A stretch of 22,175 bases of DNA from a virus (taxonomy: Duplodnaviria; Heunggongvirae; Uroviricota; Caudoviricetes): the IMG/VR virus record IMGVR_UViG_2534682074_000009; one strand, given 5' to 3'. Positions 3,238-12,494 of this stretch are shown in pieces (position 1 is the stretch's first letter; each line of letters opens with the position of its first letter). A program made the translations under genes and the position numbers. The notes under the pieces were generated by a model that was given only the letters and a program-made list of their open reading frames with translations, ran no database searches and was not told the origin of the DNA.

Positions 3238-3509
3238 GTATTCGTATTGAAATTGGCGAACGTTATGTCGTTACCAGTGACAGCTTTCAGTTTATTCTCC
3301 ACGAGAAAAAGAGAGCGGAAAGCGGTAAAAACGCCGGTCAGGAATGGCTGGCGGTGGTTGGTTATTACCCGAAATTAGGCCAGCTCGTTTCCGGCCTGAT
3401 GCATCACGATATTCTGACCGGAAGCGCAAAATCTTTTGCTGATTTAAACGCGCAGGTTGAGCAACTCAGCAAGCGTTGTTCAGAGGCTTTTGGCTCATAT
3501 GGCCGTTAA
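3234..3509 (+). CDS. Hypothetical early protein (P2 orf83 position)
   Basis: 91-aa ORF whose start overlaps the previous stop and whose end overlaps the gene A start. Confidence 0.55.
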   Translation: MSIRIEIGERYVVTSDSFQFILHEKKRAESGKNAGQEWLAVVGYYPKLGQLVSGLMHHDILTGSAKSFADLNAQVEQLSKRCSEAFGSYGR

Positions 3510-5775
3510 AGCCTCCGGGCGTTTTGTCCCTCCGTCAGCATTTACCGCAGGCACCGGTAAGGCGTTTACCGGTGCTTATGCATGGAACGCGCCACGCGAG
3601 GCTGTCGGGTGCGAAAGACCTCTTACACGTGACGAGATGCGTCAGGTGCAAGGTGTTTTATCCACGATTAACCGCCTGCCTTACTTTTTGCGCTCGCTGT
3701 TTACTTCACGCTATGACTACATCCGGCGCAATAAAAGCCCGGTGCACGGGTTTTATTTCCTCACATCTACTTTTCAGCGTCGTTTATGGCCGCGCATTGA
3801 GCGTGTGAATCAGCGCCATGAAATGAACACCGACGCGTCGTTGCTGTTTCTGGCAGAGCGTGACCACTATGCGCGCCTGCCGGGAATGAACGACAAGGAG
3901 CTGAAAAAGTTTGCCGCCCGTATCTCATCGCAGCTTTTCATGATGTATGAGGAACTCTGCGATGCATGGGTTGATGCGCATGGTGAAAAAGAATCGCTGT
4001 TTACGGATGAGGCGCAGGCTCACCTGTATGGTCATGTTGCTGGCGCTGCACGTGCTTTCAATATTTCCCCGCTCTACTGGAAAAAATACCGTAAAGGACA
4101 GATGACCACGAGGCAGGCATATTCTGCCATTGCCCGCCTGTTTAACGATGAGTGGTGGACTCATCAGCTTAAAGGCCAGCGTATGCGCTGGCATGAGGCG
4201 TTACTGATAGCTGTCGGGGAGGTCAATAAAGACCGTTCTCCTTATGCCAGTAAACACGCCATTCGTGATGTGCGTGCGCGCCGCCAGGCAAATCTGGAAT
4301 TTCTTAAATCGTGTGACCTTGAAAACAGGGAAACCGACGAGCGCATCGACCTTATCAGTAAGGTGATGGGCAGTATTTCTAATCCTGAAATTCGCCGGAT
4401 GGAGCTGATGAACACCATTGCCGGTATTGAGCGTTACGCCGCCGCAGAGGGTGATGTGGGGATGTTTATCACGCTGACCGCGCCGTCAAAGTATCACCCG
4501 ACACGTCAGGTCGGAAAAGGCGAAAGTAAAACCGTTCAGCTTAATCACGGCTGGAACGATGAGGCATTTAATCCAAAGGATGCGCAGCGTTATCTCTGCC
4601 GTATCTGGAGCCTGATGCGCACGGCATTCAAGGATAATGATTTACAGGTCTACGGTTTGCGAGTCGTCGAGCCACACCACGACGGAACGCCGCACTGGCA
4701 TATGATGCTTTTTTGTCATCCACGCCAGCATAACCAGATTATCGAAATCATGCGTCGCTATGCGCTCAAAGAGGATGGCGACGAAAGAGGAGCCGCGCGA
4801 AACCGTTTTCAGGCAAAACACCTTAACCGGGGCGGTGCTGCGGGATATATCGCGAAATACATTTCAAAAAACATCGACGGCTATGCACTGGATGGTCAGC
4901 TCGATAACGACACCGGCAGGCCGCTGAAAGACACTGCAGCGGCTGTTACCGCATGGGCGTCAACGTGGCGCATTCCGCAATTTAAAACGGTTGGCCTGCC
5001 GACAATGGGGGCTTACCGTGAACTACGCAAATTGCCTCGCGGCGTCAGCATTGCTGATGAGTTTGACGAGCGCGTCGAGGCTGCACGCGCCGCCGCAGAC
5101 AGTGGTGATTTTGCGCTGTATATCAGCGCGCAGGGCGGGGCAAATGTCCCGCGCGATTGTCAGACTGTCAGGGTCGCCCGTAGTCTGTCGGATGACGTTA
5201 ACGAGTACGAGGAAGAAGTCGAGAGAGTGGTCGGCATTTACGCGCCGCATCTCGGCGCGCGTCATATTCATATCACCAGAACGACGGACTGGCGCATTGT
5301 GCCGAAAGTTCCGGTCGTTGAGCCTTTGACTTTAAAAAGCGGCATCGCCGCGCCTCGGAGTCCTGTCAATAACTGTGGAAAGCTCACCGGTGGTGATACT
5401 TCGTTACCGGCTCCCACACCTTCTGAGCACGCCGCAGCAGTGCTTAATCTGGTTGATGACGATGTTATCGAATGGAATGACCCGGAGGTCGTGAGGGCGC
5501 TCAGGGGCGCATTAAAACACGACCGGAGAACGCCAAACCGTCAGCAAAGAAACGGAAGCCCGTTAAAACCGCATGAAATTGCACCATCGGCCAGACTGAC
5601 CCGGTCGGAACGATTGCAAATTACCCGTATCCGCGTTGATCTCGCTCAGAACGGTATCAGGCCGCAACGATGGGAGCTTGAGGCGCTGGCGCGTGGCGCG
5701 ACCGTAAATTATGACGGGAAACCTTTCACTTATCAGGTCGCTGATGATTGGCCGGGATTTTTGTTACCCATTTGA
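3499..5775 (+). CDS. A: Rolling-circle replication initiation endonuclease (P2 gpA-like)
   Basis: About 758 aa. Contains the histidine motif PHWHMMLF and the paired catalytic tyrosines in GYIAKYISK, characteristic of P2 A-type initiators. Start 3499 (MAVKASGRF) chosen within the longer six-frame ORF. Confidence 0.9.
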   Translation: MAVKASGRFVPPSAFTAGTGKAFTGAYAWNAPREAVGCERPLTRDEMRQVQGVLSTINRLPYFLRSLFTSRYDYIRRNKSPVHGFYFLTSTFQRRLWPRIERVNQRHEMNTDASLLFLAERDHYARLPGMNDKELKKFAARISSQLFMMYEELCDAWVDAHGEKESLFTDEAQAHLYGHVAGAARAFNISPLYWKKYRKGQMTTRQAYSAIARLFNDEWWTHQLKGQRMRWHEALLIAVGEVNKDRSPYASKHAIRDVRARRQANLEFLKSCDLENRETDERIDLISKVMGSISNPEIRRMELMNTIAGIERYAAAEGDVGMFITLTAPSKYHPTRQVGKGESKTVQLNHGWNDEAFNPKDAQRYLCRIWSLMRTAFKDNDLQVYGLRVVEPHHDGTPHWHMMLFCHPRQHNQIIEIMRRYALKEDGDERGAARNRFQAKHLNRGGAAGYIAKYISKNIDGYALDGQLDNDTGRPLKDTAAAVTAWASTWRIPQFKTVGLPTMGAYRELRKLPRGVSIADEFDERVEAARAAADSGDFALYISAQGGANVPRDCQTVRVARSLSDDVNEYEEEVERVVGIYAPHLGARHIHITRTTDWRIVPKVPVVEPLTLKSGIAAPRSPVNNCGKLTGGDTSLPAPTPSEHAAAVLNLVDDDVIEWNDPEVVRALRGALKHDRRTPNRQQRNGSPLKPHEIAPSARLTRSERLQITRIRVDLAQNGIRPQRWELEALARGATVNYDGKPFTYQVADDWPGFLLPI

Positions 5776-6033
5776 GTAAAAATACAGCGTGATTTTATAT
5801 GTCTTTGAATGGATTATGCGAAGCACCTCTAAGGTAGATGAGGAGCAATAGCGTGTTGAATCAGAAGGCTAAATTGTATTGAATCGTTAGCATGTAATTG
5901 AAGGCAGCTATTTGATTCGAGTCATAAAAGAGCATCTATTTCGGTTAATAAAACCATTGCGAGTGACTTTATGTCGAAGCATAATTCATCTCGAGCGAAG
6001 TCTTGCTAGTCTTTCATCGGATTGATGACGGGC

Positions 6034-6067
6034 GCAAAAAAACCACCCTGGCAGGTGGTTTTTTTGT
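6034..6067. terminator. Bidirectional intrinsic terminator
   Basis: Seven A (6036-6042), stem ACCACCCTG / CAGGTGGT, seven T (6059-6065). Can terminate plus-strand transcripts leaving A and the minus-strand mini-ORF transcript. Confidence 0.55.
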
Positions 6068-6077
6068 TTGAAGCATA

Positions 6078-6191
6078 CTAAAGAAAAATACTTACATGGA
6101 TATTACTGACGTTTACTGACAAACCACTCGGACTACCATATGGATAGCCAAAGAGGGCCAGAACGAGAATGCAGTAATAGCACTTCTTCAT
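6078..6191 (-). CDS. Candidate 37-aa hydrophobic small protein (MKKCYYCILVLALFGYPYGSPSGLSVNVSNIHVSIFL)
   Basis: Absent from the ORF track because it is short. Perfect AGGAGG 4 nt upstream of the ATG (reverse complement of 6196-6201); stop at 6078-6080 is directly followed on the minus strand by the 6034-6067 terminator. Hydrophobic N-terminal half. Confidence 0.3.
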   Translation of the reverse strand: MKKCYYCILVLALFGYPYGSPSGLSVNVSNIHVSIFL

Positions 6192-6847
6192 ATCGCCTCC
6201 TGTAAGCAGAGGGCAATTTCCGCCGATATATGCGCTTCTAAGGCGGAGTGACTATTGAGCGAAGTCTTGCCCTGAAATAATGCTCTGTTTAAACGCAAAG
6301 TGATCTGGCATATCACCGAACAGAGGACCTGAACAACACAACATATAGTATGTCGTTGTTTCTGGTTGCATTTTATGTTGTGTAATACTGGTTTTGCATC
6401 AAGGATGTTTGAGCTTTTTTTGATATAGCTCAAAGTAAAAAGCAGAGACTACGGATGATAAGGTCTTGAAAGCAATGTAAATTTTTTAAAGTTGTGAGTG
6501 GCTAGAAATGCACAGTTTCAATATGGCGGATTTAAACAAGTAATTAAAAATAGCGACATAAATTCAAATAAAATCATTAAGTTGCGTTTTCTGTGGAAAC
6601 TTCGGTGACTCTGAAATTTTCTTTTAGTGTCGCTGAGGTTTAACAACTCGCTGCGCAAGTAGTTAGTGTTTTTTTAATTCAATATTCTGATTTATAAGGT
6701 TTTTTATAAATCGTGGGCTGGTTGCGCGTATTCATCTCGTGTTATCAGCAAAGATAAGCTCTATATGCAGAACTGAATGCATATATGATGTCGAAAATGT
6801 TATGGGAAAACGTGGATTAGTGTTATAGTAATGGCTGAAAAACAGCC

Positions 6848-6907
6848 TTGACATAAAATAACAATTGTGATATGGCTGTGCATACTTAACTTTTTTAACG
6901 TAGGAGG
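6848..6907 (+). promoter_or_regulatory. Candidate sigma70 promoter and RBS for the metallopeptidase gene
   Basis: Consensus -35 TTGACA (6848-6853), 17-bp spacer, weak -10 TATGGC (6871-6876); AGGAGG (6902-6907) 5 nt before ATG 6913. Confidence 0.35.
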
Positions 6908-6912
6908 CAACC

Positions 6913-7398
6913 ATGAGCTATGCAGCTAAAAAACTGCTTGACCGCTATTGGGATCGCCGACTACCTGTCGATCCGTTTAAGCTTGCTAAAGCGTGGGGTG
7001 CTCGTGTTGAAGCACTTGAGGAATCGGCTTATAACAACGATGGGTTAAGCGGTCTGGCTGTCATCAAAAAGGGTGTCCATAGGATTTATTTTGATTCTAG
7101 TGAACATTCTAATCGTCAACGTTTTACTGTTGCACACGAGTTAGGTCATCATGTGCTGGGGCATACCCAGGACGGAGAGTACCATCGGGATAATGTCGGG
7201 AATTATTCAACAGGTGCTCGTGATTACCGTGAGGTTGAAGCAAACAAGTTTGCTGCTGAGTTGTTAATGCCTGAGTCTGCTATACGTCAATTGGTATCCA
7301 GAGAAGGTATTGATAGCACTTTGAGATTAGCAAGCATCTTTAATGTATCAGAAGCCGCTATGCATTGGCGCTTAAAGAGCTTAGGAATGGCTTATTAA
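6913..7398 (+). CDS. ImmA/IrrE-family (COG2856 / DUF955-like) zinc metallopeptidase, stand-alone
   Basis: 161 aa. HEXXH motif in FTVAHELGHHVLGH and the downstream EANKFAAELLMP signature typical of this family. Strong SD. No adjacent XRE/HTH partner ORF is visible. Confidence 0.8.
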   Translation: MSYAAKKLLDRYWDRRLPVDPFKLAKAWGARVEALEESAYNNDGLSGLAVIKKGVHRIYFDSSEHSNRQRFTVAHELGHHVLGHTQDGEYHRDNVGNYSTGARDYREVEANKFAAELLMPESAIRQLVSREGIDSTLRLASIFNVSEAAMHWRLKSLGMAY

Positions 7399-7425
7399 TT
7401 AGCCTTTAACTTTTAACCTGTTTAA

Positions 7426-7464
7426 AATCACCTTTACGTTTGTACATGTAAGGGTGATTTTTTT
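7426..7464 (+). terminator. Intrinsic terminator between the peptidase and membrane-protein ORFs
   Basis: 11-bp stem AATCACCTTTA / TAAGGGTGATT (one G-U pair), loop containing palindrome TACATGTA, then seven T (7458-7464) abutting ATG 7465. Confidence 0.5.
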
Positions 7465-8064
7465 ATGGCTGATATTGATTTATCTGGACAGTCCCCAGAG
7501 CAAGGAACCACTCCTAAGGGCGATTTAGATCCTGATATCCTTATAAGGCGAGATAGACGGGATGGTATAGAGCGTAGAAGTATGCGATTAGTGCTCTCTG
7601 CCGTTGTGCTTTGTTTTGCTTGTACATTTCTATGGCAGGGGCTTAACTTTGCTTTGGCTGTTGGAAATGGCTTGCTGGAAGCGAAAAGCAGTATTGCCGC
7701 AGCGATAACACAAAAAGTAGATACACAAACTTGTGTTTCAGCAGAAAAATGTTCTGCTTTATCTTCGGATCCGAAGATGGCTGATGAGAGGATAACACCA
7801 TCTTCAGACACTAATAAAGTTAGAAAATCTATTTCTGGTTTATCCACCGATTGGTTATCGGCCAGTTCTCTAATAGCTATTGTTGCATTCATCCTTGGTG
7901 TGGGTTTAACTTTGCTTTTGACTCTTCTTAAATCAGCATTTCAACACCCGACAGATAAAGACTTTAGAACAAAGTCGACATCTAATACTATTGAGTTGGC
8001 CACGCCAATCAGTGAATTAATAATTGGTGTTCTGAATATAATTAAAGACAAACTATCTAAGTAA
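7465..8064 (+). CDS. Predicted small membrane protein with two hydrophobic helices
   Basis: 199-codon ORF in AT-rich DNA. Two ~22-residue hydrophobic segments (LVLSAVVLCFACTFLWQGLNFALAV and LIAIVAFILGVGLTLLLTLL). Start uncertain (weak SD; internal Met at 7582 possible). Followed by the 8107-8139 terminator. Confidence 0.45.
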   Translation: MADIDLSGQSPEQGTTPKGDLDPDILIRRDRRDGIERRSMRLVLSAVVLCFACTFLWQGLNFALAVGNGLLEAKSSIAAAITQKVDTQTCVSAEKCSALSSDPKMADERITPSSDTNKVRKSISGLSTDWLSASSLIAIVAFILGVGLTLLLTLLKSAFQHPTDKDFRTKSTSNTIELATPISELIIGVLNIIKDKLSK

Positions 8065-8106
8065 AGCATTAGTTGTGATTTTTTATTGGTTTTAGTGATA
8101 ATACAT

Positions 8107-8139
8107 CTCCAGTACTTATTGTTACTGGAGAGTATTTTT
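8107..8139 (+). terminator. Intrinsic terminator in the convergent gap
   Basis: Stem CTCCAGTA / TACTGGAG (8107-8114 / 8123-8130), 8-nt loop, then agtattttt. Sits between the plus-strand membrane ORF and the stop of the minus-strand 313-aa gene. Confidence 0.45.
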
Positions 8140-8146
8140 AGTCGTT

Positions 8147-9088
8147 TTATATTTTTAATGTTAGTGAATGATATTCACGAGAGTTCACGTTCGATGTGAT
8201 GTAATCGGGGGCGTTAACACCAAGAATCGCAACGAGTAATCGGCAAATTAAAGCCTGCATTTGTTGTAATATGTCATCTCCATATTGATAATTGTTAATA
8301 GTGGTAAAGCCAAGTGGTTGACCATGAAACATAGCTTCATGAAAGTTTTCATTGCGGATGTTTGTAATGTTTTTTTTGCCTGTAACCCATGATGGTCGTG
8401 GTATTCCATAAGTTTTGCAGATCCACTTCAAGCGCCTGGAGTGATTTAGAGTCTTTTCTGTACACTTGTTCTTTTCTGCCCATGTTAAAGCAAAGCAACT
8501 ATCCAGTGCCATATAAAGATACTGGAATTTTTCGAAGCTAAGGTATTGTGGGTTTTGGGATAAAAATAGTGCATGCACTATTGCTGCTATATTTATTGGT
8601 GCGTGTTTGGTTTTTGTCTCGCTAGACATGTATTTGAGTGCTAATTCTATAACCTCTTTTTCAGAGCACTTGACCAGAATAAAGTCAGTTAATTTGCTGG
8701 GTTTTATTGGGGTTGCGTCTAAAAAACCGGCATCAGTAGTTGTTAATCTTATCCCTTTGAAAAAAGACAGACACCACACAGCAAAATTGAGAGTTTCTAG
8801 TGAAGATGTATTTTTTAATTTTAGTGAGTGTGTTTTGGGTAAACCAAATACTCGTTGGCTAAAAGGCATTGTGGATATGCCTCCATTGAGGTTATATACT
8901 TCTTGGTTTCCTGGGTATATCCAACCGTTAATAACATTTCTGTGATTGTTTATAAGATTTGTTTTTTCCGCTAGACCGGGTAAAGTAAGTAAAGAAAAAT
9001 CATCAGTTTCAACGTTAACTTCTACTGGATAGTATCCAAACTCAGCTTCAATATCATTGGATTGCTGTTCGTCAACTTTACCTTGCAT
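8147..9088 (-). CDS. Hypothetical 313-aa cargo protein; possible HEPN-like (R-x4-H) domain
   Basis: Long uninterrupted ORF in AT-rich DNA; GGAG 6 nt upstream of the ATG. Same orientation and position relative to cos that tin/old occupy in P2. Single motif R245-N-E-N-F-H250 in a predicted helical C-terminal half. No family confidently recognised. Confidence 0.7.
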   Translation of the reverse strand: MQGKVDEQQSNDIEAEFGYYPVEVNVETDDFSLLTLPGLAEKTNLINNHRNVINGWIYPGNQEVYNLNGGISTMPFSQRVFGLPKTHSLKLKNTSSLETLNFAVWCLSFFKGIRLTTTDAGFLDATPIKPSKLTDFILVKCSEKEVIELALKYMSSETKTKHAPINIAAIVHALFLSQNPQYLSFEKFQYLYMALDSCFALTWAEKNKCTEKTLNHSRRLKWICKTYGIPRPSWVTGKKNITNIRNENFHEAMFHGQPLGFTTINNYQYGDDILQQMQALICRLLVAILGVNAPDYITSNVNSREYHSLTLKI

Positions 9089-9326
9089 ACATTGCTCCGG
9101 TCAAAAATAGGCTCGATAATTCTCGTAAGCCTATCATGTTCGCAAAGTATCCATTCCTGTGGATTTTGTAAATTTAAGTTGATTTGTCATTAAATAAGCC
9201 GTTGCATGCAACAAGTGAATGTTTTTGCATGCGTCGGGGATGTCCGTTCAGGCTGCGTGCGGTCAGGACTGGTGCGGATCCATAGTATCTATGCAACTGC
9301 ATTAAAACCGCCCCATGAAGCGGGCG

Positions 9327-9345
9327 GGCGAGGCGGGGAAAGCAC
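9327..9345. other. cos site (19-nt cohesive-end sequence, P2-type)
   Basis: GGCGAGGCGGGGAAAGCAC matches the P2 cohesive-end sequence as I remember it, at the expected place between the cargo region and Q, followed by a G/T-rich packaging region (9346-9480). Confidence 0.55.
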
Positions 9346-9514: not shown

Positions 9515-10549
9515 TCAGCCGTTGTCAGTGTCCAGTGAGTAGTTTTTAAAGCGGATGACCTCCTGACCGAGCCAGCCGTTTATCTCGCGGATCCTGTCCT
9601 GTAGCGGGATAAGCTCATTGCGGACAAAGACCTTTGCCACTTTCTCAATATCACCCAGCGACCCGACGTTCTCCGGCTTGCCGCCCATCAACTGAAAGGG
9701 GATGCGGTGCGCGTCCAGCAGGTCAGCGGCGCTGGCTTTTTTGATATTAAAAAAATCGTCCTTCGTTGCCACTTCACTGAGCGGGATAATTTTAATGCCG
9801 TCGGCTTTCCCCTGCGGGGCATAGAGAAACAGATTTTTAAAGTTGTTGCGGCCTTTCGACTTGACCATGTTTTCGCGAAGCATTTCGATATCGTTGCGAT
9901 CCTGCACGGCATCGGTGACGTACATGATATATCCGGCATGAGCGCCGTTTTCGTAATACTTGCGGCGGAACAGCGTGGCCGACTCATTCAGCCAGGCAGA
10001 ATTAAGGGCGCTGAGATATTCCGGCAGGCCGTACAGCTCCTGATTAATATCCGGCTCCAGCAGGTGAAACACGGAGCCGGGCGCGAAGGCTGTCGGCTCG
10101 TTGAAGGACGGCACCCACCAGTAAACATCCTCTTCCACACCACGGCGGGTATATTTTGCCGGTGAGGTTTCCAGTCTGATGACCTTACCGGTGGTGCTGT
10201 AACGCTTTTCCAGAAACGCATTACCGAACACCAGAAAATCCAGCACAAAGCGGCTGAAATCCTGCTGCGAAAGCCACGGATGCGGGATAAACGTTGAAGC
10301 CAGAATATTGCGTTTGACGTAAATCGGTGAGCTGTGATGCACGGCAGCACGCAGGCTTTTTGCCAGACCGGTAAAGCTGACCGGTGGCTCATACCATCTG
10401 CCGTTACTGATGCACTCGACGTAATCCAGAATGTCACGGCGGTCGAGTACCGGCACCGGCTCGCCAAAGGTGAATGCTTCCATTTTCGGGGCGCTGGCGG
10501 TGATTGTTTTTGCCGCAGGTCGCGGTGTTTTCCCTTTTTTCTTACTCAT
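9515..10549 (-). CDS. Q: Portal protein (P2 gpQ-like)
   Basis: 344 aa, first late gene next to cos on the minus strand, overlapping the P stop; size and position as in P2. Confidence 0.9.
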   Translation of the reverse strand: MSKKKGKTPRPAAKTITASAPKMEAFTFGEPVPVLDRRDILDYVECISNGRWYEPPVSFTGLAKSLRAAVHHSSPIYVKRNILASTFIPHPWLSQQDFSRFVLDFLVFGNAFLEKRYSTTGKVIRLETSPAKYTRRGVEEDVYWWVPSFNEPTAFAPGSVFHLLEPDINQELYGLPEYLSALNSAWLNESATLFRRKYYENGAHAGYIMYVTDAVQDRNDIEMLRENMVKSKGRNNFKNLFLYAPQGKADGIKIIPLSEVATKDDFFNIKKASAADLLDAHRIPFQLMGGKPENVGSLGDIEKVAKVFVRNELIPLQDRIREINGWLGQEVIRFKNYSLDTDNG

Positions 10550-12321
10550 CAGTAAAACTCCAGAATGGTGGATGTCAGCGGGGTGCTGATACCGGCGGTG
10601 AGTGGCTCATTTAACAGGGCGTGCATGGTCGCCCAGGCGAGGTCGGCGTGGCTGGCTTCCTCGCTGCGGCTGGCCTCATAGGTGGCGCTGCGTCCGCTGC
10701 TGGTCATGGTCTTGCGGATAGCCATAAACGAGCTGGTGATGTCGGTGGCGCTGACGTCATATTCCAGACAGCCACGGCGGATAACGTCTTTTGCCTTGAG
10801 CACCATTGCGGTTTTCATTTCCGGCGTGTAGCGGATATCGCGCGCGGCGGGATAGAACGAGCGCACGAGCTGGAACACGCCGACACCGAGGCCGGTGGCA
10901 TCAATTCCGATGTATTCGACGTTGTATTTTTCGGTGAGTTTGCGGATGGATTCAGCCTGAGTGGCAAAGTCCATGCCTTTCCACTGGTGACGCTCAAGTA
11001 TTCTGAATTTGCCACCGGCCACCACCGGCGGTGCCAGTACCACGCATCCGGCGCTGTCGCCACGGTGTGACGGGTCGTAACCAATCCATACCGGGCGGGA
11101 GCCGAACGGATTGGCGGCAAACGGCGCATAGTCTTCCCATTCTTCCAGCGTGTCGACCATGCAGCGTTGCAGCTCCTCGAACGGGAACACCGACGCCTTG
11201 TCGTCAACAAATTCACACATGAACAGGTTTTTAAAATCGTCGGCGCTGTTTTCACGTTTGAGCTGCTCAATGTCGAACAGCGTGCAGCCGCCTTTCAGCG
11301 CGTCCTCAATGGTGACAATCTGCCGCCACTGGCCGTCCGCACAGAGAAGCCCACCGGCAAGGGCGTTATGACTGACGTCGATTTCCACGCGTTCAGCGGC
11401 GCTGGCGCGTCCCCGGTTAAACAGTTCACCCGACCAGAACGGATAGGCGTCGTGCGCCAGCGTGGACGGGGTGGAGAAATAGGTCGAGCGCAGGTGACTC
11501 TGTGAGGCCATACCTGATGCCACCTTACGCAGTACCTGAAAATTCGGGATCCAGAAAATCTCGTCGACGTACAGGTCGCCGTTATGGCTCTGCGCGGTGT
11601 TGGAGTTGGTGCCGAGAAAAATCAGTTTTGCGCCGTTATTGCCCAGGACAATCGGGTCACCGGTCAGGTCAACGTCAACCAGTCGGGCAAAGGCGATGAT
11701 GTATTCGCGGAACACATACGCCTGCGTTTTACTGGCCGACAGAAAAATCTGGTTATGACCGGTTTTCAGGGCGCGCAGCAGCGCCTCGCGGGAAAAATAA
11801 AACGTCGCGCCAATCTGGCGGGATTTCAGGATATCGCGGATGCGGTGCTCAAGCCCGGCGCGATACCAGTGCAACTGATATTCGAAAGACTGCTCAAAGA
11901 AAATCTGCTCCAGCTTTTCGATAGCCTCGTCGCTGAAAAAATTCTTTTTCGGTTTGCGTCGCCCGCCTTTGTTGCGGTTAGCGATGTTCGGATTAAGGTC
12001 TGCCTCGTTGCCGGTCTGGTTGTAGCGGTTTACCCGTGCCAGTCGTTCAATCTGGCGTCCCAGCAGATCAATTTCCTTGAAGTCACCGCCGGTTTTCTGC
12101 GGTTTGATGATGAGCTGGGTCAGCCGCGCTTCCAGACTCATTTCGACACGGCTGATGGGAGCAACGCTGTCCCAGCCGTCGCGCTGTTTCCAGCTCTGCA
12201 CCGTCGGGCGTTTCATCTGCAACATGGCGGCAATCTGCGGCACGGAAAACCCCTGCCAGTACAGCAGCGCCGCCTGACGACGCGGGTCGTGTAAAAGAGT
12301 GGTGTCTGTGGTGATGGTCAT
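10549..12321 (-). CDS. P: Terminase large (ATPase) subunit (P2 gpP-like)
   Basis: 590 aa from the Met at 12321 (MTITTDTTLL), which has a GAGGT SD upstream; the six-frame ORF extends to 12351 without an SD. Divergent from O, as in P2. Confidence 0.9.
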   Translation of the reverse strand: MTITTDTTLLHDPRRQAALLYWQGFSVPQIAAMLQMKRPTVQSWKQRDGWDSVAPISRVEMSLEARLTQLIIKPQKTGGDFKEIDLLGRQIERLARVNRYNQTGNEADLNPNIANRNKGGRRKPKKNFFSDEAIEKLEQIFFEQSFEYQLHWYRAGLEHRIRDILKSRQIGATFYFSREALLRALKTGHNQIFLSASKTQAYVFREYIIAFARLVDVDLTGDPIVLGNNGAKLIFLGTNSNTAQSHNGDLYVDEIFWIPNFQVLRKVASGMASQSHLRSTYFSTPSTLAHDAYPFWSGELFNRGRASAAERVEIDVSHNALAGGLLCADGQWRQIVTIEDALKGGCTLFDIEQLKRENSADDFKNLFMCEFVDDKASVFPFEELQRCMVDTLEEWEDYAPFAANPFGSRPVWIGYDPSHRGDSAGCVVLAPPVVAGGKFRILERHQWKGMDFATQAESIRKLTEKYNVEYIGIDATGLGVGVFQLVRSFYPAARDIRYTPEMKTAMVLKAKDVIRRGCLEYDVSATDITSSFMAIRKTMTSSGRSATYEASRSEEASHADLAWATMHALLNEPLTAGISTPLTSTILEFY

Positions 12322-12494
12322 GAATACCTCGCCGTGATGAATACACGGCAAGGCTACTGAGTCGCGCCCCGCGATTCGCTAAGGTGCTGTTGTGTCAGTG
12401 ATAAGCCATCCGGGACTGATGGCGGAGGATGCGCATCGTCGGGAAACTGATGCCGACATGTGACTCCTCTAATCACTATTCAGGACTCCTGACA
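12322..12494. promoter_or_regulatory. Divergent late-promoter region between P and O
   Basis: Intergenic region between divergently transcribed P and O, where P2 has Ogr-dependent late promoters. I could not find a clean TGT-N12-ACA element by eye. Confidence 0.35.

Follow-up and report, generated by a model that had tools for sequence, protein, structure and literature searches.

A stand-alone cos-proximal protein of P2-like prophages with a putative HEPN-type ribonuclease domain

The stretch of DNA analysed here (the window; 22,175 nucleotides of the Caudoviricetes virus record IMGVR_UViG_2534682074_000009) is a P2-like (Peduovirus) prophage, in which the integrase, C, cox, early genes and replication gene A (3457–5775, plus strand) come first, an AT-rich accessory stretch (~5776–9300) and cos follow, and the portal gene Q (9515–10549, minus strand), the terminase gene P (10549–12351, minus strand) and then the late genes lie beyond. 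Beside cos, a leftward gene encodes a 313-residue protein (Table 1), which is deposited as hypothetical ORF313 in the P2-EC67 record and is likewise annotated as hypothetical in identical E. coli prophages. Sequence comparison and structure prediction suggest that it is probably a stand-alone, two-domain anti-phage protein with an HEPN-type ribonuclease (RNase) half, carried as cargo of the P2 cos-proximal hotspot.

Table 1 Features of the 313-residue protein gene and its surroundings, in window coordinates.
Feature	Position	Strand	Basis
Coding sequence of the 313-residue protein (WP_001161722; 'ORF313' type of P2-EC67; PHROG 5937)	8147..9088	-	ATG start; open reading frame list
N-terminal beta-rich domain, residues ~12–140, proposed sensor/regulatory	8669..9055	-	
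C-terminal helical HEPN-like domain, residues ~143–300	8189..8662	-	
R245-N-E-N-F-H250-E251 (R-N-x3-H-E), proposed catalytic site	8336..8356	-	Translation RNENFHE; conservation
Shine-Dalgarno sequence GGAG, 6 nt 5' of the ATG	9095..9098	-	Read from sequence
Promoter-like site ATGACA-16 nt-CAAAAT, inferred; the sole such site upstream of the gene	9163..9190	-	Consensus scan
Hairpin with 9-bp stem between convergent units	8106..8131		Terminator-like scan, found on both strands
cos, P2 19-nt cohesive end GGCGAGGCGGGGAAAGCAC (landmark outside the gene)	9327..9345	+	Exact match, 0 expected by chance

A preliminary description of this DNA, made from the sequence alone, had placed the gene next to cos and leftward, in the arrangement of the P2 genes tin and old. 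The cos site agrees with cosR/cosL of the P2 reference NC_001895 and lies 239 bp from the start codon, and the placement is correct because tin and old of reference P2 share the side of cos occupied by the 313-residue protein gene and are encoded on the same strand as Q and P. The gene thus lies between gpA and gpQ beside cos, the location that defines the P2 cos-proximal (old/tin) hotspot. Its codon usage had also been described as AT-rich and unlike that of the core genes, in agreement with a GC content of 0.365 and a GC content at third codon positions of 0.31, compared with 0.65 for Q, 0.71 for P and 0.55 for A.

The gene carries its own expression signals. In P2-EC67, the ribosome-binding site of ORF313 is annotated at the place equivalent to the GGAG of the window. 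The promoter-like site has 9 of 12 consensus matches, which alone is no better than expected from shuffled sequence; its -10 element aligns with P2 sequence that immediately precedes the mapped starts of old-tin transcription, and in reference P2 these starts lie ~150 bp from cosR. The hairpin is found 16 nt past the stop codon and is likely to be a terminator common to both convergent units that ends the transcript of the 313-residue protein gene. The stretch between start codon and cos (9089–9326) is almost identical in the window, in Yersinia phage VB-YPM-4 and in P2-EC67, whereas the proteins of the latter two are only 69–74% identical to that of the window and the DNA of the gene region ~82%, which suggests that 9089–9326 is a conserved backbone or promoter segment, and that the coding part may have been allelically replaced or may evolve faster.

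The evidence for a nuclease centres on a single short motif. RNENFH, at residues 245–250 (nt 8339–8356), is the sole R-x4-6-H in the protein, and the preliminary description had noted both the polar residue after the arginine, as in HEPN RNases, and the risk of a chance occurrence. That caution was justified: from composition alone, 0.23 R-x4-H motifs are expected in each such protein, and one occurrence carries no significance by itself. We therefore examined conservation across the family, which has 603 homologues in a large protein database and, in an exhaustive profile search, 657 cluster representatives, nearly all of ~300 residues and matched across both halves of the protein. In an alignment of 36 sequences with 44–80% identity, R245, N246, H250 and E251 are all invariant. 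Among 77 more distant homologues (26–48% identity), R245 and H250 are retained in every sequence, N246 in 72 (94%) and E251 in 74 (96%), and because the arginine and histidine are kept throughout, the motif is more than a chance match; its loss among homologues, named beforehand, in combination with a lack of phage resistance, as a reason to abandon the idea, was thus not seen. R-N-x3-H-E can be taken as the signature of the family. The sole invariant columns of this alignment are G112, E186, R245, H250, G260 and R283, and the strict invariance of R245, H250, E186 and R283 points to catalysis. Four further residues of the helical half, C198, H216, C224 and H172 (nt ~8415–8575), are 81–97% conserved in the family; by analogy with the zinc sites reported at ApeA dimer interfaces, they could form a structural metal site.

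The fold was addressed by structure prediction. A first AlphaFold model, built from the 36 sequences, had a predicted local distance difference test score (pLDDT) of 82.9 and was poor exactly at the motif; a second, built from the 77-sequence alignment, reached a pLDDT of 93.7 and a predicted template modelling score of 0.92. In the latter model, the N-terminal domain consists of strands 13–17, 25–27, 31–35, 61–65, 71–77, 87–91 and 136–138 with helices 39–47 and 97–111. The C-terminal half was already thought to be helical, and is modelled as helices 143–155, 163–176, 184–206, 216–227, 241–250 and 270–288, with the motif on helix 241–250 at a pLDDT of ~94; a short hairpin and a loop connect it to the long helix 270–288, which bears the invariant R283. 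Following the HEPN helices as described in the ApeA preprint, we would assign H1 to 163–176, H2 to 184–206, an insertion to 216–227, H3 to 241–250 and H4 to 270–288. In this single-chain model, the motif helix and the long helix after it fit the place of helix H3 described for ApeA and HepT, and the predicted helical bundle was scored as superposable on solved HEPN domains.

Two results temper the HEPN assignment: a Foldseek search of the Protein Data Bank (PDB) gave no match at E <= 0.001, and no curated HEPN-clan profile matched the family, the 77 members yielding one match to RiboL-PSP (E 0.074) and one to HEPN_Apea (E 0.15). HEPN families are notoriously divergent, so that the missing profile match weakens the assignment without excluding it.

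The protein had been described as belonging to no recognisable family, and this holds. Scans against Pfam (at E <= 1), NCBIfam and PADLOC returned no family, such scans of the 36 and the 77 family members gave no family-level match, and the only assignment is a full-length match to PHROG 5937 (E 3e-205), a group of unknown function. The AbiD/AbiF-type proteins that had been offered as an example did not bear out, as neither the window protein nor any of the 113 alignment rows (36 + 77) matched Abi_2 (PF07751). A confident match to an unrelated non-defence protein, which would have spoken against the idea, was not encountered either; searches of PDB sequences gave only weak matches. One of these, to the N-terminus of NrdB, the R2 subunit of E. 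coli ribonucleotide reductase (residues 244–284, E 0.014; phmmer/profile search), spans the family stretch RNDxxHEalFFgxPLGF and was judged a chance match, with K/K replacing R/H. Another, to bacterial RyR-domain proteins (residues 1–56; pattern 'yxPxxxDl...GWxY'), had a whole-sequence E of 0.0037 and a range of 0.004–0.5, and was also attributed to chance, as each repeat is insignificant alone and no family member has a Pfam RyR match.

Next, the distribution of the family was examined. Homologues are present in 98 of 5,426 complete E. coli genomes (~1.8%), in seven phage records, all Peduoviridae, and on six plasmids, three of them conjugative; they also occur in Salmonella, Citrobacter, Klebsiella and Yersinia phages, and across Gamma-, Beta- and Alphaproteobacteria, Planctomycetota and Myxococcota. 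Their settings are P2-like phages, integrative and conjugative elements, plasmids and defence islands. In P. aeruginosa, the homologue shares an island with ParB and DUF932 genes and neighbours an OLD-TOPRIM ATPase and a UvrD helicase, and in Acinetobacter it adjoins a gene for DUF4238, a domain shown to be defensive by Rousset et al. When 131 flanking proteins pooled from 26 loci were scanned, the PADLOC matches included MkoA, Avs3, Hhe, RmrA, AbiEii, PtuB, PDC-S37, PDC-S49 and PDC-M06, and those of Pfam included type IV secretion (CagX, TrbI), resolvases, AlpA, and P22-like and P2-like phage modules. Such a distribution is characteristic of a defence gene that moves horizontally. The homologue of Aeromonas veronii (loci L007–L010, 4684–5895 and 6001–6963) is in every case preceded by an AlkZ-like (PF06224) gene of the same orientation at a distance of 105 bp, in otherwise housekeeping surroundings, and the two genes may form a small islet.

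A role in defence has also been predicted independently: DefensePredictor (Science 2026) lists WP_001161722.1 as a 'Predicted novel defense gene' without a remote homologue, with a mean log-odds of 9.68 (range 8.8–11.3) where the strict cutoff is 4. An HEPN-fold protein could instead serve outside defence, in RNA processing, regulation or ligand binding, or as virulence or fitness cargo; we regard this as unlikely, given that the strictly invariant R, H, E186 and R283 argue for catalysis and that both the patchy, horizontally transferred distribution beside defence genes and the DefensePredictor score speak for defence.

The neighbourhood bears on two other explanations, each of which would give the 313-residue protein a partner. 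In the window, a plus-strand two-gene operon (6913–8064) converges on the gene; it encodes a 161-residue M78/ImmA-type peptidase (6913–7398) and a 199-residue protein (7465–8064; PHROG 8096) with two transmembrane segments (2-TM). The peptidase resembles CapP (PADLOC E 1e-30) and is also RmrA-like, and the operon has no partner of the helix-turn-helix/ImmR type. Between gene A and this operon, ~1.1 kb of AT-rich DNA (5776–6912) holds short open reading frames only; it lacks annotated genes in RefSeq copies and matches nothing in Rfam. One of these frames, directly downstream of an AGGAGG (6078–6191, minus strand), encodes a hydrophobic 37-residue peptide (MKKCYYCILVLALFGYPYGSPSGLSVNVSNIHVSIFL) and adjoins a strong bidirectional terminator (AAAAAAACCACCCTGGCAGGTGGTTTTTTT, ~6035–6070); a small membrane peptide or a type I toxin is conceivable.

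If the 313-residue protein were the toxin of an addiction or toxin–antitoxin module that stabilises the prophage or island, its antitoxin, a small protein or an antisense RNA, would have escaped recognition. This seems quite improbable: neither an MNT-like gene nor another conserved neighbour of any size was seen in 32 loci; cos and the terminator border the gene directly in the window, and a scan of the whole window returned no Rfam RNA; and the conserved N-terminal domain offers a built-in regulator.

More specific, and very improbable, is a joint system of three genes, formed with those of the M78 (ImmA/CapP-like) peptidase and the 2-TM protein, in which, for example, the peptidase licenses the HEPN protein. 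The three genes are adjacent in the window and in many E. coli loci, the combination 'Peptidase_M78 + hypothetical + hypothetical' recurs in Table S5 of Rousset et al., the peptidase is CapP-like at the E-value given above, and weak M78 homologues lie near the 313-residue homologue in 2 of 26 distant loci. Set against this, the units are convergent with a terminator between them; the homologue occurs without the M78 and 2-TM genes in phage 613R3, in P2-EC67, in the other 24 distant loci, and in Yersinia phage VB-YPM-4, where it is by itself behind gene A; and the pair in turn is found without the 313-residue protein gene. Rousset et al. (2022, Table S5B) also curate the two separately for the P2 hotspot, as system 11 (the sequence of the 313-residue protein, with no domain, no comment and 218 occurrences) and system 21 (M78 and 2-TM protein, 148 occurrences, outside the tested set). 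As the modules occur independently, we rejected the three-gene arrangement. Only two P2-like loci were among those of 28 species-representative genomes, and no flanking open reading frame, large or small, was conserved beyond groups of related islands. The gene stands alone, with its own ribosome-binding site and terminator and no conserved partner, on the grounds of these signals, its place between cos and the terminator, and homologues that are independent of their neighbours.

Least probable of all is that the helical half is a generic bundle whose motif is conserved for structural reasons or for another catalysis unrelated to HEPN chemistry, as the HEPN-type hypothesis raised in the preliminary description is supported both by a motif invariant in 77 of 77 homologues and by the HEPN-like predicted fold.

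We thus favour a stand-alone defence protein with an HEPN-type RNase half. In the scheme that we infer, the protein would be expressed in the lysogen, and its C-terminal half would form an HEPN-fold ribonuclease domain with R245-N-x3-H250-E251, probably together with the invariant E186 and R283, as the active site, most likely assembled between the two subunits of a homodimer, like that of other HEPN enzymes. The beta-rich N-terminal domain packs on the HEPN domain and would keep the nuclease inactive until an infection signal arrives; the activated enzyme would then cut RNA, either tRNA anticodon loops or bulk RNA, as do ApeA, HepS and Tha, and the resulting stop in translation would abort the infection.

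The nature of the signal may be reflected in the conservation of the N-terminal domain. Mean pairwise identity is 0.351 in this domain and 0.346 in the HEPN half, the most conserved single stretch of the protein (101–128) lies within it, and the residues W56, R79, T86, H87, R114 and D135 are near-invariant; the domain (~12–140) matches no solved structure. As the two halves are conserved to the same degree, a small molecule or nucleic-acid product that is itself conserved is a likelier signal than a phage protein that evolves fast; from a sensor in an arms race with a variable phage protein, quicker divergence would be expected. We accordingly favour binding of a conserved ligand or substrate by this domain, comparable to the deoxydinucleotide pocket of ApeA. 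A tentative and rather doubtful extension of this view is that the ~140-residue domain is an undescribed sensor fold, which would bind an infection-derived small molecule or nucleic-acid fragment through these six residues and activate the HEPN nuclease allosterically. If so, the family would represent the ligand-gated principle of ApeA in compact form, at the size of a monomer or dimer, with an unrelated sensor and a range from Enterobacteria to Planctomycetota.

The prediction that this protein acts in defence is already known from DefensePredictor; what is new here is the HEPN assignment with specified candidate catalytic residues, the stand-alone status, and the recognition of an equally conserved orphan N-terminal domain. 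Signature peptides of the family were found in none of the 12 supplementary files of the DefensePredictor paper, tested sequences included, and the DS-40 protein of that work (WP_097419291, 311 residues), considered as a possible tested homologue, proved unrelated. The sequence is likewise absent from the tested constructs of Rousset et al. (2022), and neither the accession nor the PHROG turned up in a full-text literature search, nor did any experiment on the protein. In E. coli, the protein ranks 11th in frequency among the cargoes of the P2 cos-proximal hotspot, yet it is 'hypothetical' everywhere; with candidate catalytic residues named and a conserved N-terminal domain recognised, what machine learning predicted can be put to the test by mutation. 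Validation would enlarge DefenseFinder and PADLOC by a compact single-gene RNase defence and help to explain phage-host range in clinical Enterobacteria, and the ligand of what would be a new sensor domain could point to a further signal of infection.

Among known proteins, those of the AbiD/AbiF (Abi_2) type are comparable in length and share an R-x4-H type motif within a helical region; the beta-rich N-terminal domain, together with the missing PF07751 match reported above, sets the present family apart from them. HepT-type toxins pair with an MNT nucleotidyltransferase antitoxin, and no such neighbour was found beside the homologues, whose contexts differ between taxa. P2 old and tin share the slot and orientation beside cos and are AT-rich cargo of the lysogenic-conversion type; the 313-residue protein is unrelated to both, and has no matches to domains such as the ABC ATPase and TOPRIM that P2 Old combines.

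HepS of the Salmonella prophage Gifsy-1 (Nature 2026, PMC13043305), an anticodon nuclease that forms tetramers and is triggered by the tail-tip protein J, is likewise a prophage-encoded HEPN protein of Enterobacteriaceae that acts by abortive infection, as we propose for the 313-residue protein. It is a bare HEPN domain of <250 residues, to which the present protein adds a 140-residue domain. ApeA is a single-protein HEPN defence found at the same P2 and P4 hotspots; it senses deoxydinucleotides, which phage nucleases release, in a conserved ligand pocket and cuts tRNA anticodon loops. In both proteins an insertion separates the motif helix from the last core helix, and non-HEPN domains regulate the nuclease in ApeA, as they would in the 313-residue protein. 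The architectures differ: ApeA has ~580 residues, is almost entirely helical, comprises three domains (N, Mid and a split HEPN) and forms decamers or dodecamers, whereas the present protein has 313 residues and a beta-rich N-terminal domain. Apart from the marginal match of one of the 77 members (E 0.15), the family does not match ApeA (PF18739 / PADLOC Gao_Ape), and one member (P0063) carries the UniProt name 'Apea-like HEPN'.

The closest known system in architecture is Tha-1, a proven RNase of 301 residues, which with Tha-2 is encoded by Staphylococcus aureus prophages (Rostol et al. 2024, PMC11087260). Like the 313-residue protein, the Tha proteins are single prophage products of ~300 residues, with an N-terminal half in which no domain is recognisable and a C-terminal HEPN domain (putative in the present protein) that has an R-N-x3-H motif (RNSIMH in Tha-1); each is cargo of the lysogen and would block phages that arrive from outside. 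They differ in that the N-terminal domain is confidently folded and beta-rich in the 313-residue protein and unpredictable in Tha, that 63 residues separate the motif from the C-terminus compared with 31 in Tha-1, and that the hosts are Proteobacteria rather than staphylococci. Profile alignment detected no homology, with hhalign probabilities of 0.6% for the 77-sequence alignment against Tha-1 and 0.4% against a 12-sequence Tha profile, and no small antisense gene like the Ith inhibitor is conserved beside the homologues beyond locally related islands. On sequence and predicted structure, the 313-residue protein would thus work like the 'sensor plus HEPN' single-protein defences, while standing outside every named family.
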